Shown here piece by piece: positions 1 to 28,721 of a DNA stretch of 32,000 nt; position 1 is the first letter of the stretch, and each line of letters starts with the position of its first letter. Below the pieces are notes generated by a model. It did not search any database. It was not told where the DNA came from and saw only the letters and a program-made list of their open reading frames with translations. The DNA is from Candidatus Thorarchaeota archaeon (GTDB lineage Archaea > Asgardarchaeota > Thorarchaeia > Thorarchaeales > Thorarchaeaceae): assembly GCA_003345555.1 (NCBI GenBank), contig PRDJ01000057.1:75836-107835 (forward strand), in the 5' to 3' direction. Position numbers and translations under genes: made by a program.

Positions 1-218
1 TTCTCGTCCTGACTCTTCTTTGCCTGCTTCACCATGTCTTGGTACTGCTTAATCTCCGTTTGATATCTCTTCAACCGACGCACATCTGTGAAGCGTTTCA
101 TAGCCAGATTGCTGGTTAGGGTCACACCCATAGAGACGAGAGTAATCAAAACGCCCGAAAGCGGTGGTGTACGGAAGATCTCAAACCAAGATAAGAGAGC
201 TGCGAACAGGTCCTGCAT
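1..218 (-). CDS. DUF106 / EMC3-TMCO1 (Oxa1 superfamily) membrane protein, runs off window start
   Basis: Hand translation from ATG at 218: MQDLFAALLSWFEIFRTPPLSGVLITLVSMGVTLTSNLAMKRFTDVRRLKRYQTEIKQYQDMVKQAKKSQDE, a TM helix followed by a coiled coil. Canonical position after secY-adk in archaea. Not in the ORF track. Confidence 0.85.
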   Translation of the reverse strand, partial: MQDLFAALLSWFEIFRTPPLSGVLITLVSMGVTLTSNLAMKRFTDVRRLKRYQTEIKQYQDMVKQAKKSQDE

Positions 219-224
219 TCTCGT

Positions 225-815
225 CTACTCCATTAGTGTTTGATATAGCTCGGTCGCAGCCGCCTCGACTTCTCCCTGACGATTGTTGATTATCCTCACC
301 GTTGCTCCAGTGATCGTCCCTGCGGCGACAGCAGCGGCTCTGCACATCTGTTGATGGATCTCTATCACCGCAACATCTTGGCTGTCACGTGCACGAGTGG
401 GGTCCTCGCTCCTTCGCGCAGCAATCTTATCGGGTGCTGCTTCGACCAAGACTATGGTCTTTGGTCCAAGTGCAGTCACTACCCACTCAGGCAGCCCAAT
501 CAAGTAACCGTTGTTCGTTTGGATGAGCGTATGTGTGTCAACAATGATACGCGCTGACTTGGCCTTCTGAGCTATGCTCTGACCTGCCAGCTTCTGGATT
601 TCGCGCTGCGTCTTTGTTGCCAGCTTTCTCATCTCGTCTCTGTCTTTCACCAAGCCCTTCTTGGACGCGACTTCGAACATGGCTGTCCCAAAGTTCAGCA
701 CAAGGACTTCCTCTCCGTGCTTCTGCTTGACCATATCTACAGCTGTTGTGATTACGGTCGTCTTGCCGACACCTGGGATTCCTGTGACTATGACAAGGTT
801 CTTTCCTTCGGGCAC
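225..815 (-). CDS. adkA: Archaeal adenylate kinase
   Basis: P-loop GIPGVGKTT, IIVDTH, GLP motif; follows secY; GTG start. Confidence 0.95.
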   Translation of the reverse strand: MPEGKNLVIVTGIPGVGKTTVITTAVDMVKQKHGEEVLVLNFGTAMFEVASKKGLVKDRDEMRKLATKTQREIQKLAGQSIAQKAKSARIIVDTHTLIQTNNGYLIGLPEWVVTALGPKTIVLVEAAPDKIAARRSEDPTRARDSQDVAVIEIHQQMCRAAAVAAGTITGATVRIINNRQGEVEAAATELYQTLME

Positions 816-24884: not shown

Positions 24885-26462
24885 ATGTCTAGCGTTCTAG
24901 TTGTTGATGCCCTGAGTTCAGGAACTGGTCGGCGACAGAGTTCAAGGGATTCCATAGGTTGTGGACCGAGAACTGTTGCAGGCGTCTTCGAGAAGCACGG
25001 CATCCGCTGCAAGATAGAGCGAGCTGAGGATCTGTCACTAAAGCGAGGAATCCTTCGACAATACCAACATCTCGCCATCAGTGCTATGACAATGGATACA
25101 CCCATTGTTCGACAACTAATCAACAGCTGGCGGCGGACCAAGGCGCACGGCAGGGTGTTACTGGGTGGACCAATCGCATCAGACCCACATCACATTCTCG
25201 TGGAACTCAAACCTGATGTATTGGTCATAGGAGAAGGCGAAACAACTCTTGAGGAACTCATCAACAAAGGCTACCTAGAGAGCGAAACGGACTTACGAGC
25301 TGTCAAAGGCATAGGATACACTGAATCTGGCAACGGTTTCGTAACGGAGCCTCGTCCGCTGTTGTCAGCTGAAGAGATTTCTGACCAATACAGGCCCTCG
25401 ACCACGCGTATTGTTGACTATACCTCCTACCAAGCAAGCAAGGTATATGTTGAGGTACTGCGAGGATGCTCGAACTTCAGACGGACTGTTCTCAGGCTGC
25501 CCGACGGGCGTCAATGCTCTGACTGCGGCAACTGTGAATCTGATGATTACACAAGAAGGCTCAGCTGTCCCGAGGATGTACCTCCTGGTTGCGGCTTCTG
25601 CAGTGTTCCAGCCACATGGGGCCCACCCAGAAGCCGGTCGATTATTGCGATTACCAAAGAGACGTCAGAGCTCTTGGATATCGGAGTAAGACGGGTTGTT
25701 CTTGAGGCCCCGGACTTCCTCGACTACATGAGAGGCCAGAACACAACGGATCCCTGCGAGCCTGCGGCTAACTTGGAGGCGATTTCAGAGCTCTTGGACT
25801 CTTTGGCGAGCATTCCACAAATCGCCAATGGCTCGGCTCATATTGGAATAGAGAACATGAAGGCCTGTCTTCTGACCGACTCTGCCGCCGAAGTAATATC
25901 GAGGCATTTGAGGACCGTTTCTCCGAACATAGGTCTCGAAACAGGATCAGCTGAGCATTTGCGCCGCATAGGGAAATGCGGCACACCAGAAGACGTAGTC
26001 CGTGCAGTCCGAGCTGCAAGAGCCCACGGAATGCATCCCTTTGTTTATCTAATCTACGGACTTCCCGGCGAGACCGAGGAGACCGTGAAGGAATCAGTAC
26101 GACTGCTGCAGGAAATCAGTCACGAAGGGGCCGAGAGAATAATCCTGTATGGCTTCCGTCCTCTTCCCGGTTCAGCGTTCGAGCACTTTTCGTCATCTTC
26201 CCTGAATAGTGAGCTTAGCCGCAAATTGCGTAGGGCAGCAGAGGCAGTCAATCGCAGCAAGAAGATGGAGTTTGTGGGAACCATTGTACAAGGTGTTGCA
26301 GCAGAGCCCTCATGGACTAGGCACGGCCACACGATGGTATATCCACTCGATGAAGGCCCGGTGATCACCGTCCAAGGTGGCTACTCCCCGGGCACTCTTA
26401 TCAAAGTGCGGGTGACTGGCGTGCTCAGTCCTGGCCTTGTCACAGGAGAAGTAGTGCGCTGA
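24885..26462 (+). CDS. B12-binding-domain radical SAM enzyme with Cys-rich insert and C-terminal TRAM-like domain
   Basis: LLGGPIA, LVIGEGE, VEVLRGCSN...GCGFC, GLETGS, YLIYGLPGET. Start moved to ATG at 24885. Confidence 0.88.
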   Translation: MSSVLVVDALSSGTGRRQSSRDSIGCGPRTVAGVFEKHGIRCKIERAEDLSLKRGILRQYQHLAISAMTMDTPIVRQLINSWRRTKAHGRVLLGGPIASDPHHILVELKPDVLVIGEGETTLEELINKGYLESETDLRAVKGIGYTESGNGFVTEPRPLLSAEEISDQYRPSTTRIVDYTSYQASKVYVEVLRGCSNFRRTVLRLPDGRQCSDCGNCESDDYTRRLSCPEDVPPGCGFCSVPATWGPPRSRSIIAITKETSELLDIGVRRVVLEAPDFLDYMRGQNTTDPCEPAANLEAISELLDSLASIPQIANGSAHIGIENMKACLLTDSAAEVISRHLRTVSPNIGLETGSAEHLRRIGKCGTPEDVVRAVRAARAHGMHPFVYLIYGLPGETEETVKESVRLLQEISHEGAERIILYGFRPLPGSAFEHFSSSSLNSELSRKLRRAAEAVNRSKKMEFVGTIVQGVAAEPSWTRHGHTMVYPLDEGPVITVQGGYSPGTLIKVRVTGVLSPGLVTGEVVR

Positions 26463-26600
26463 GACTCACCGCAATAGGAAAAGCTTCAGAAGAAAAGCTT
26501 CATATGGCCAGCTCTTGGCTACGCAAAGGACGGCCTTAACAGCCTGAGTGCTGCTGCGTGCGGCCATGCTTCACATTGTCTTGGCTGGAGATAAGCTATC

Positions 26601-26744
26601 ATGGTCTATATTTGCCACTCATGTAAGCGCGAAGTGACGCCCGAAGGATTGAAGACGCTTCCCGGTGTCAAGTGTCCGTACTGCGGAGGAAGAATCCTCT
26701 ACAAGATTCGCCCGCCTGTCGTGAAGCGGGTCAAAGGGGTTTAG
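26601..26744 (+). CDS. rpoP: DNA-directed RNA polymerase subunit Rpo12 (P)
   Basis: Hand translation: MVYICHSCKREVTPEGLKTLPGVKCPYCGGRILYKIRPPVVKRVKGV. CxxC...CPYCG.RILYK.RP motif; GGAG upstream. Not in the ORF track. Confidence 0.95.
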   Translation: MVYICHSCKREVTPEGLKTLPGVKCPYCGGRILYKIRPPVVKRVKGV

Positions 26745-26768
26745 AGTCTTCTCTGAATCTCAGAGCAT

Positions 26769-26867
26769 TTATGGTTTGAAGAGAAGATAGATTGCTGCAA
26801 TGGCGGACACCAGAAACAGCGCTATGAAGACTATCGAAGCGATTTTTCTCTTCAACGTGAAACGCAA
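26769..26867 (-). CDS. Putative 32-aa single-pass membrane protein
   Basis: TTG immediately after the ATPase stop, with GGAGG 8 nt upstream: MRFTLKRKIASIVFIALFLVSAIAAIYLLFKP. Not in the ORF track. Confidence 0.65.
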   Translation of the reverse strand: MRFTLKRKIASIVFIALFLVSAIAAIYLLFKP

Positions 26868-27839
26868 TCATGCTTCCTCCTGATTTCCTAAGAGTATGTC
26901 ACCGAGCCTAGTAAGGCCATCCATGCCGCGTATCTCAGTATCGAAGAGAGGCACCTCCGTAATATCAAGGTCGCTGTAGAGATCTCGTATGTCTGCAAGA
27001 TTGACAAGCTGCATCTCTCTGCGTCTACTGCAGAACACGCAATCTACGTTCTCTGGTACAAGTTGATTTACGACCAAATGGCTCACAGGTATGTGCCACT
27101 TGTTGAGACTGGCCAACAAACGCTGAGTCTCAAAGACCGCCATGGCCTCTGAGATCAATACCACGACAAATTGAGTTGTATCAGGGTCTGACAACTCAAT
27201 TCGGGCGGCACGTATCTTTTCCTTGGTCTTTTTCAGGGTCTCCCAAGAAGTATCCTCTTGTTGAGTACCGCCGAACATTGTCTTGAGGCCGGACATCATG
27301 GAGCTGAGTCTCTGTCTCATTGTGAGTAGCTTACCCAGCCAGCTGTCGAGAAGCTCAGGCAATTCAAGTAGCTTCAGAGTATGTCCGGTGGGTGCCGTGT
27401 CAAATATGATGCGGTCATAGGAGGAGTCCTCAATGAACTCAAGCATCTTCCCGAACGCCATTGCTTCATCAGAGCCCGGCGGTGCCATTCCTCCAACGTC
27501 ACCCAGAAGCATTGAAGCGGCCTCCATTTCGGGGCCGGCCTTGCTATCCCCGAGACTCTGCTGAAATTCCTTCATTGCCTTCTCAGTTTGAATCTCCAAA
27601 CCGGAGAGTCGGTCGACGCCTTGAATTGGGACGATGTCACCCCCGCTTAGATTCTGGTCGAAGGAGTCGCTCAGACTGTGAGCTGGGTCCGTAGACAGGA
27701 CAAGTGTTCTGTAACCGTGCCTTGCGGACAGGAGCGCCATGGCAGCGGCACAGCTCGTTTTGCCCACGCCACCTTTCCCGCCACTAAGAATGAAGCGTAA
27801 GCTGTCCTTGTAGACTATGTCTGCGAGGGTCAATGTCAA
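26868..27839 (-). CDS. Get3/TRC40-like (ArsA family) ATPase, single domain
   Basis: GKGGVGKTS, STDPAHSLSD, DTAPTGHTL, Met-rich helices, C-terminal CVFC. Confidence 0.93.
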   Translation of the reverse strand: MTLTLADIVYKDSLRFILSGGKGGVGKTSCAAAMALLSARHGYRTLVLSTDPAHSLSDSFDQNLSGGDIVPIQGVDRLSGLEIQTEKAMKEFQQSLGDSKAGPEMEAASMLLGDVGGMAPPGSDEAMAFGKMLEFIEDSSYDRIIFDTAPTGHTLKLLELPELLDSWLGKLLTMRQRLSSMMSGLKTMFGGTQQEDTSWETLKKTKEKIRAARIELSDPDTTQFVVVLISEAMAVFETQRLLASLNKWHIPVSHLVVNQLVPENVDCVFCSRRREMQLVNLADIRDLYSDLDITEVPLFDTEIRGMDGLTRLGDILLGNQEEA

Positions 27840-28004
27840 GTCCTCATTTGCGGCTCGAACCCTTGTGTGTATTAATGCTTTGCCGATGCACGAATCACAA
27901 CGATACGATGGGGGAACCGGGGTCGGTCGCTGGTTCTGAGACCTCTGTGAGAGTCATGAGAGACAAGGCAAAGGCTTAAGCGTTTCAGAGTCTTCCAAAC
28001 CCCG

Positions 28005-28721
28005 ATGTCGTTCCCGCAGGTCCATATGGCGGCGGAGGCATTTCCGTCGACGGTTCTGAGACTCCTTGGCATTATGGTTCCTGATGGGTTGTCTCCAGCG
28101 AACGAGGAAGTCCTTAGCAGGTTTAGCCCGAAGGCTGTGGTTATTGTAATGATTGACAACTTCGGGTTATTTGAAGCAGTGGTCTACAAGCCGGAAGCAC
28201 TGCTCAAGAACATGGAATTGCTGGCGCTCATTGACACCGGCGATCCATATGCAATTCCGCTGACGAATGCAATCCTTCAGGGACATACTGCATTTCATCT
28301 AATCCGATATGTTAAGGACTACGGCAAGTTCGCCGAGGCAATTTGCCGCGAGGATGACGTGTCCTCAATCGGCCTCGACGGGGCCAACACGATCAATGTT
28401 CACGACGATATGGCAACATACGTGGAGTCAACTAAACACATATCCAAAACCGATTTGCTTTTTCTTCACTTCCTAGACTTCGAGAGTCTGTACGCTCAAT
28501 ATGGACACAGGACGCCACCAAAGACTCTCTTAGAGAAAATCGTGCGAAGAACGGATAACTGGATTAAGGTTCTCCTCAGACAGGCCCGCGTGGGCACGTT
28601 TTTCATTGTAATAGGGAACCACGGCAGACATCCGATTCCTCTTGACTACGAAGGTAAGCTGGCTGAGTGGCGGAGTGCCAATGCACCCATTGCCATGATG
28701 TTTCAGAAGCGAACTGAGTAG
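28005..28721 (+). CDS. Short alkaline-phosphatase-superfamily-fold protein, degenerate active site; start uncertain
   Basis: VVIVMIDNFG, LLFLHFLD, FFIVIGNHG (normally DHG). Confidence 0.65.
   Translation: MSFPQVHMAAEAFPSTVLRLLGIMVPDGLSPANEEVLSRFSPKAVVIVMIDNFGLFEAVVYKPEALLKNMELLALIDTGDPYAIPLTNAILQGHTAFHLIRYVKDYGKFAEAICREDDVSSIGLDGANTINVHDDMATYVESTKHISKTDLLFLHFLDFESLYAQYGHRTPPKTLLEKIVRRTDNWIKVLLRQARVGTFFIVIGNHGRHPIPLDYEGKLAEWRSANAPIAMMFQKRTE

Follow-up and report, generated by a model that had tools for sequence, protein, structure and literature searches.

A conserved 32-residue membrane peptide gene coupled to get3 in Thorarchaeota

In Thorarchaeota, a small open reading frame (ORF) at the 3' end of the gene of a Get3/TRC40-type ATPase (get3) encodes a hydrophobic peptide that is conserved throughout the family. 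Get3 is known as an ATPase by which tail-anchored membrane proteins are escorted. It is described here from a 32,000-nucleotide (nt) stretch of the Thorarchaeota contig PRDJ01000057.1, which is called the window and to which all positions refer; the source genome has 2.28 Mb in 82 contigs. In the window, get3 (26868..27839, minus strand) has a TTG start and a TGA stop and encodes 323 amino acids (aa). The small ORF, which is translationally coupled to it, occupies positions 26769..26867 of the same strand and has 32 codons, from a TTG start (26865-26867) to a TAA stop (26769-26771). It is almost certain that this ORF is a genuine protein-coding gene and, as far as could be found, it belongs to a micro-membrane-protein family tied to Get3 in Thorarchaeota that is real, unannotated and apparently undescribed.

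Conservation and selection of the small gene

The 3' end of get3 reads ...CAG GAG GAA GCA TGA, and the TTG of the small ORF follows this TGA with zero gap. A Shine-Dalgarno-like GGAGG lies within the last codons of get3 (26876..26880, minus strand), 8 nt 5' of the start of the small ORF. This arrangement, which had been pointed out in a first-pass annotation of the window, is borne out by the sequence.

The orthologous Get3 was located in 30 related genomes and 78 contigs, with one genome per species, and the region 3' of its stop codon was read. Wherever the sequence of a Thorarchaeota locus continues past the orthologous Get3, an equivalent ORF follows, which gives 75 distinct loci and 71 distinct peptides. 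The first-pass annotation had named stops or frameshifts behind orthologous ATPases as the observation that would speak against the gene; none of the 75 loci is broken in this way, and the peptide has exactly 32 aa in 48 of the 71 distinct peptides and 31-38 aa in the others. Of the 75 start codons, 41 are ATG, 18 are GTG and 16 are TTG, and in the nearest relative, whose Get3 is 92% identical, ATG stands where the small ORF of the window has TTG. Relative to the stop of get3, the small ORF starts at -4 nt in 23 loci, at -1 in nine and at 0 to +5 in 41, meaning that 73 of the 75 starts fall between -4 and +5, with the remaining two at +12 or +14 nt. A Shine-Dalgarno-like motif is present at most 18 nt 5' of the small ORF in 72 of these loci. 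The small ORF is retained where the gene downstream of it differs.

A profile built from the 71 distinct Thorarchaeota peptides retrieves the small ORF from the window's own genome with an E-value of 2.1e-12, the next match being at 0.54. Profile matches occur in 82 of the 85 genomes of the family and in all 16 genera, with one copy in most genomes, and a broader profile, which includes sequences from other families, finds the peptide in all 39 family genomes that are at least 90% complete. As for the three genomes without a match, the contig stops inside Get3 in one, and the Get3 orthologue is unassembled in the other two. No Thorarchaeota genome with a Get3 orthologue and its 3' flank was found to lack the peptide.

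Two particularities were seen among these loci. In locus L124 (G353:C292), a second, diverged copy of the hydrophobic part of the peptide lies about 600 nt downstream of the peptide gene linked to get3 (33.9 bits) without the basic N-terminus, and it may be a decaying duplicate. In the close relative L003 (G001:C16), a TAG and 12 nt separate get3 from the peptide ORF, which continues in the same frame, and read-through of this stop codon would yield a membrane-anchored Get3. The peptide ORF is also in frame in fourteen other distinct Thorarchaeota loci, including that of the window, at an offset of 0 or +3.

The 32-codon genes have a mean pairwise nucleotide identity of 57%, with a minimum of 41%. 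The median ratio of nonsynonymous to synonymous substitution rates (dN/dS, Nei-Gojobori) is 0.30 for the 221 usable pairs, and the value for the pairs with dS below 0.6 is 0.23. The mean column entropy at codon positions 1, 2 and 3 is 1.00, 0.65 and 1.61, respectively, which is a pattern of the coding type, with the third position far above the second. The small ORF is under purifying selection at the protein level, and the dN/dS calculation that the first-pass annotation had proposed as a check gives a value of about 0.25.

The presence of such an ORF at the 3' end of get3 is far beyond chance expectation. Among 23 evaluable metagenome loci of unrelated single-domain ArsA/Get3-family genes, mainly relatives at 25-37% identity, none has a small hydrophobic ORF that starts between -25 and +60 nt from the stop, and in 18 other Asgard families the Get3 loci that were sampled show no convincing ORF of this kind. 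Gene callers nearly always overlook the small ORF: when nine exact peptides were looked up in about 15 billion predicted proteins, eight were absent and the ninth had no name, which agrees with the earlier description of the ORF as unannotated. In the literature on Get3 in archaea and Asgard archaea and on small partners of Get3, no account of such a peptide was found.

Features of the peptide and of the ATPase

The peptide of the window has four basic residues among its first eight, a hydrophobic span of 22 residues (residues 9-30) and a tail of two residues, so that the basic N-terminus and the near-terminal 22-residue helix noted at first reading are both present. The best 17-residue Kyte-Doolittle mean is 2.85. 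The basic N-terminal segment (residues 1-8; 26844..26867, minus strand) follows the pattern M-[RK]-x3-[KR]-x-K: position 2 is basic in 70 of the 71 distinct peptides, position 6 in all of them, and position 8 is Lys in 69. This segment is predicted to be cytoplasmic, and by the positive-inside rule the C-terminus, whose sequence is mostly [FY]-[KR]-[PG], would lie outside.

The single predicted transmembrane helix (residues 9-30; 26778..26843, minus strand) contains the most strongly conserved residue of the peptide, Ser21, which is present in 71 of the 71 distinct peptides. Phe18 is found in 65 of them, Leu28 in 57, Ala25 in 54 (Thr in a further 10) and Phe14 in 49, while position 11 is always Ser, Ala, Gly or Thr. 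The best-conserved positions are thus 11, 14, 18, 21, 25 and 28 and, given their 3-4-3-4-3 spacing, these residues would share one conserved face of the helix, S11-F14-F18-S21-A25-L28.

This peptide is not recognized as a member of any described family. None of 50 members searched against Pfam-A, nor of three searched against NCBIfam, gave a match above the cut-off, with sub-threshold matches to hydrophobic segments only, and in the ESM Atlas the best score of the peptide (0.80) is at chance level. Pfam, NCBIfam and the ESM Atlas likewise reveal no sequence similarity to the known small single-helix families.

The ATPase that is encoded together with the peptide is, by its sequence, of the Get3/TRC40 type and not an ArsA. 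It matches Pfam ArsA_ATPase (1.3e-84) in one stretch that spans residues 15-317. Against the NCBIfam model TIGR00345 (GET3_arsA_TRC40) it scores 295.6 bits, with a cut-off of 135, whereas against the ArsA equivalog TIGR04291 it reaches 117.9 bits, with a cut-off of 650, and the true ArsA models all give scores far under their cut-offs. The best relatives of solved structure are, in order, Chlamydomonas ArsA1, the Get3 of M. thermautotrophicus (3zq6, 2.5e-75) and that of M. jannaschii (3ug6, 6.4e-72), followed by yeast/fungal and human Get3/TRC40, while the match to E. coli ArsA (1f48) is no better than 7e-38. The P-loop GKGGVGKT and the switch II motif DTAPTGHT are both present, and both are invariant in the alignment of Thorarchaeota Get3. 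The CxxC motif (C267-C270) aligns with that of 3zq6 and is invariant in 15 Thorarchaeota sequences. The helical insert of about 90 residues (residues ~100-190) contains nine Met and aligns to 3zq6 without a large gap. The Get3-like character that had been read from the single domain, the Met-rich helices and the CxxC is therefore upheld by the TIGR00345 score and the ranking of structures. An arsenite-pump ATPase would be recognized by tandem duplicated domains, a metalloid-binding Cys triad and an ars operon context; this identity was rejected, given that the ATPase consists of one domain, has no Cys besides C30, C267 and C270, and is not encoded in an ars operon context. Extra tandem paralogues of the ArsA/Get3 family, with about 30% identity to the Get3 orthologue, were seen in several Asgard genomes (G031, G005, G006, G010, G020 and G033).

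Occurrence in other Asgard archaea and gene surroundings

The order of get3 followed by the peptide gene is also found in four further Asgard families, whose Get3 is 45-57% identical. In the sister family, which belongs to the same order, a 33-aa peptide is encoded 43 nt past the Get3 stop, and in the three more distant linked families Get3 is 45-54% identical. The peptides of these four families score weakly with the Thorarchaeota-only profile. Since in all seven of their loci position 1 of the profile falls on an ATG, TTG or GTG codon and position 21 is Ser, they are taken as homologues on the strength of their sequences. In the Get3 tree, the backbone is not resolved and the linked Get3s fall in three clusters, which is compatible with one origin of the linkage or with several.

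In Freyarchaeia, the Thorarchaeota-only profile matches a small ORF in six of six genomes, with E-values per genome between 2.8e-6 and 6e-4, and the K8-F18-S/T21 spacing is the same as in Thorarchaeota. These ORFs are likely homologues of the peptide, judging from this match and spacing. The E-values that the broader profile gives for Freyarchaeia and for the other candidate-bearing genomes are inflated, because that profile contains those sequences. In the three Freyarchaeia genomes inspected (L119-L121), the ORF is a 38-aa gene (e.g., L119:1517-1633, minus strand) that lies at the same place, between a DUF763 gene and a gene of a Rab/Arf-like small GTPase, and on the strand opposite to both. 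A scan of viral contigs for a virus-borne Get3 with a tiny membrane partner gave weak P-loop matches only.

In the window, a gene for an RpoP/Rpo12-like zinc-ribbon protein of 47 aa (26601-26744, plus strand) converges on the small ORF, with a stop-to-stop spacer of 24 nt, and this spacer contains a short inverted repeat (TCTGA...TCAGA). On the other side, get3 is flanked by a divergent 238-aa ORF (28005-28721, plus strand), for which Pfam gives nothing at E up to 0.01. Besides the rpoP-like gene, this ORF is the sole close neighbor of the pair. The neighbors of get3 are rpoP, a radical-SAM gene and the 238-aa gene without assignment.

Possible role of the peptide

The peptide may be a substrate, an adaptor or a regulator of an archaeal GET pathway, as had been suggested in the first-pass annotation. 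Our tentative preference, held with somewhat less than even confidence, is that the peptide is inserted by Get3 and thereafter has its function in the membrane, most plausibly together with the DUF106/YidC-type and EMC6-like insertase. Get3 and the peptide would be made together from one mRNA by translational coupling, and coupled pairs that are kept across such divergence usually function together. The product would be a single-pass membrane protein of 32 residues with a minimal tail-anchored topology. A chain of this length would be released before its hydrophobic helix exits the ribosome, which means that its insertion would have to be post-translational, a route that has been shown for a bacterial membrane protein of 27 aa (PMC7549839). 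Get3 would then capture and deliver the peptide. Once inserted, the peptide would not be a passive client but would pack specifically against another transmembrane helix, given that the invariant Ser21 in the middle of the membrane span and the one-sided conservation, which is rich in small residues, point to a specific helix partner in the membrane rather than to a generic client of the Get3 groove. The likeliest partner would be found where the Get3 route ends at the membrane, in the DUF106/YidC-type insertase and its EMC6-like companion; there, the basic cluster at the membrane surface would aid the docking, release or regulation of Get3. In archaea, which have a YidC/DUF106 and EMC6-like pair, Get3 must meet the membrane without a recognizable GET2 (PMC8675477).

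Several observations weigh against this proposal. Eight residues in the cytoplasm offer very little surface for docking, and, judging by the Get1/2/3 structures and PMC8530227, a basic cluster flush with the membrane would be out of reach of the site on Get3 that is bound by the basic helices of yeast Get2. The organisms are uncultured, and the binding, localization and translation of the peptide are predictions. The likely Freyarchaeia homologue stands alone, about 870 kb from Get3, meaning that the coupling to get3 is not obligatory and that the peptide can exist without it. The weaker candidates detected in two other Asgard families are also unlinked, one of them being located behind an ALG3/GT87-like glycosyltransferase gene. 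In most Asgard lineages Get3 is present and the peptide was not detected by profile search; in the largest Asgard family, which has Get3, no convincing peptide was seen, the single match in 89 high-quality genomes lying inside a frame of 1466 aa, and the same holds for several other families with Get3, where no convincing peptide was seen either. When the fusion that read-through would naturally produce in frame from get3 and the peptide gene was modelled with AlphaFold2 (stop read as Gly, paired alignment of 15 rows), confidence was low, with a mean predicted local distance difference test score (pLDDT) of 59.7 and less than 50 in the helical subdomain; the peptide helix has a pLDDT of 81-88 behind a low-confidence linker, and the model is uninformative as to its contacts.

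The DUF106 genes also fail to single out the peptide-bearing genomes. The first-pass annotation had related the peptide to a DUF106/EMC3 gene at the start of the window; this gene is indeed present (1-152, minus strand), but it lies 27 kb from the small ORF, at the end of a ribosomal-protein/secY/adk operon. The first complete ORF of the window (225-815) encodes an adenylate-kinase-like protein. The DUF106/EMC3 gene is part of the universal ribosomal/secY cluster and has no specific link to the peptide. The genome of the window has two DUF106/EMC3_TMCO1 genes, this one and another at G000:C67:52711-53169. Two copies are also found in 36 of the 39 high-quality genomes of the Thorarchaeota family and in the sister-family genome, whereas there is one copy in the majority of the other Asgard families, and two or three in part of the largest family. 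The copy number does not track the distribution of the peptide, which counts further against the proposal, and it was discarded as a correlate given that other peptide-bearing families have one copy and many genomes without the peptide have two.

In a more specific form of the proposal, the peptide would supply the element specific to Get3 that is missing from the archaeal GET receptor, namely a one-helix subunit of the DUF106/YidC-EMC6-like insertase at which Get3 can dock or unload. We consider this form improbable. If true, the peptide would be a minimal counterpart of the cytosolic extensions of Get1/Get2, in a lineage near the eukaryotic ancestor.

Outside the GET pathway, the peptide might serve another membrane complex as a small subunit or regulator, in the manner of KdpF, CydX, AcrZ or sarcolipin. 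The operon would then be shared because biogenesis of the peptide needs Get3, or by historical accident. Conservation of one helix face and the small-xxx-small spacing are typical of accessory helices, and the homologues that are probably present in Freyarchaeia, beside DUF763 and small GTPase genes, are unlinked to get3, as is the weaker candidate behind the glycosyltransferase gene. This alternative is rendered rather unlikely by the tight coupling to Get3 over five families and more than 80 genomes, in which Get3 diverges to 45% identity, and by the fact that no gene of a further membrane complex is conserved beside the pair, the neighbors being rpoP and the 238-aa gene. A cytosolic role, which we likewise regard as unlikely, would make the peptide a dedicated ligand of the Get3 groove, i.e., a pilot client or placeholder for which membrane insertion is secondary. 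Such a ligand would hold freshly synthesized Get3 in a closed, soluble or oligomeric state, or would tune its ATPase cycle, in organisms that have no loading factors of the Get4/Get5/Sgt2 type. Translational coupling suggests near-equimolar synthesis of the two proteins, the very hydrophobic helix stands at the extreme C-terminus, as in Get3 clients, and client binding alters the conformation and activity of Get3. In addition, the tetramers of M. jannaschii Get3 enclose a hydrophobic chamber (cited in PMC6593721). A promiscuous Met-rich groove, however, selects for hydrophobicity and would not be expected to demand an invariant Ser and one conserved face with small residues; moreover, the likely Freyarchaeia homologues are not co-expressed with Get3, and most of the sampled archaea that have Get3 manage without such a peptide.

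It is very improbable that the product is irrelevant and that the ORF is kept for the stability or termination of the get3 mRNA, or as a conserved RNA or terminator between convergent genes. The ORF nearly fills the spacer between get3 and the convergent rpoP, leaving 24 nt, as such an explanation would have it. What is conserved, nonetheless, is the amino-acid and not the nucleotide sequence, as seen in the 57% nucleotide identity, the dN/dS of about 0.25, the entropies of 1.00/0.65/1.61 and Ser21, and the ORF is kept in front of different downstream neighbors. A known RNA element at the locus was also rejected, given that a scan of positions 26400-28100 against Rfam at E up to 1 matched no family.

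Comparison with known systems places the peptide among the small single-helix partner proteins and the tail-anchored clients. It shares with the clients of Get3/TRC40 (Sec61beta/Sbh1, SNAREs) a very hydrophobic C-terminal helix, the absence of a signal peptide and a presumed post-translational insertion. As in tail-anchored proteins, its one transmembrane helix lies within about 30 residues of the C-terminus and there is no N-terminal signal peptide. It differs from them in that the known clients have a functional cytosolic N-terminal domain, whereas only eight residues precede the helix of the peptide, and in that the known clients are not encoded together with Get3, whereas the gene of the peptide adjoins that of a true Get3-type ATPase. 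Identity with Sec61beta/Secbeta was rejected, since Pfam gives no match for the peptide at E up to 0.01 and the genome has its own, separate Sec61beta gene (PF03911, 56 bits) on another contig.

The peptide would be, like Get2/CAML, a membrane protein whose N-terminus carries a conserved cluster of basic residues. The RERR motif of Get2 is part of basic-residue-rich helices by which Get3 is bound (PMC8530227). However, these helices are carried on a long arm (PMC8530227), whereas the basic residues of the peptide would be at the membrane surface, which counts against a Get2-like tether. Get2/CAML, a relative of EMC6, is characterized by three transmembrane helices of the EMC6 fold and by a long, flexible arm with basic helices in the cytosol (PMC8530227, PMC8675477). 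This identity was rejected for the peptide, which has one helix in 32 residues and no detectable homology to Get2/CAML. An EMC6-like protein, moreover, is already present in archaea (PMC8675477).

With KdpF, CydX, AcrZ and sarcolipin/phospholamban and, as regards the insertion route, with bacterial YohP, the peptide has in common a size of about 30 residues, a single helix with a packing face, an operon shared with a larger partner, and a tendency to be overlooked by annotation. The partners of the KdpF, CydX and AcrZ type are integral membrane enzymes or transporters, whereas the partner co-encoded with the peptide is a soluble targeting ATPase. Part of these features is also described in PMC7549839 and PMC12648545.

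Among archaeal proteins, the Get3 of M. thermautotrophicus (3zq6) and of M. jannaschii (3ug6) are close relatives of the ATPase, with the same CxxC and insert; a co-encoded micro-membrane protein is not mentioned in the papers on Get3 that were searched and read. Homologues of Get3 are widespread in archaea and two of them have been shown to bind tail-anchored proteins, while loading factors are absent and GET2 is not recognizable (PMC8675477, PMC6593721). A peptide that is strictly co-encoded with Get3 across an Asgard class is, in this context, a concrete candidate partner for the archaeal GET pathway. Given that gene callers miss the peptide, the Asgard proteomes that enter comparisons with eukaryotes do not contain it. 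With this candidate, the membrane end of the archaeal GET pathway becomes testable, for which a peptide of 32 residues, the soluble ATPase and one or two membrane proteins would suffice.

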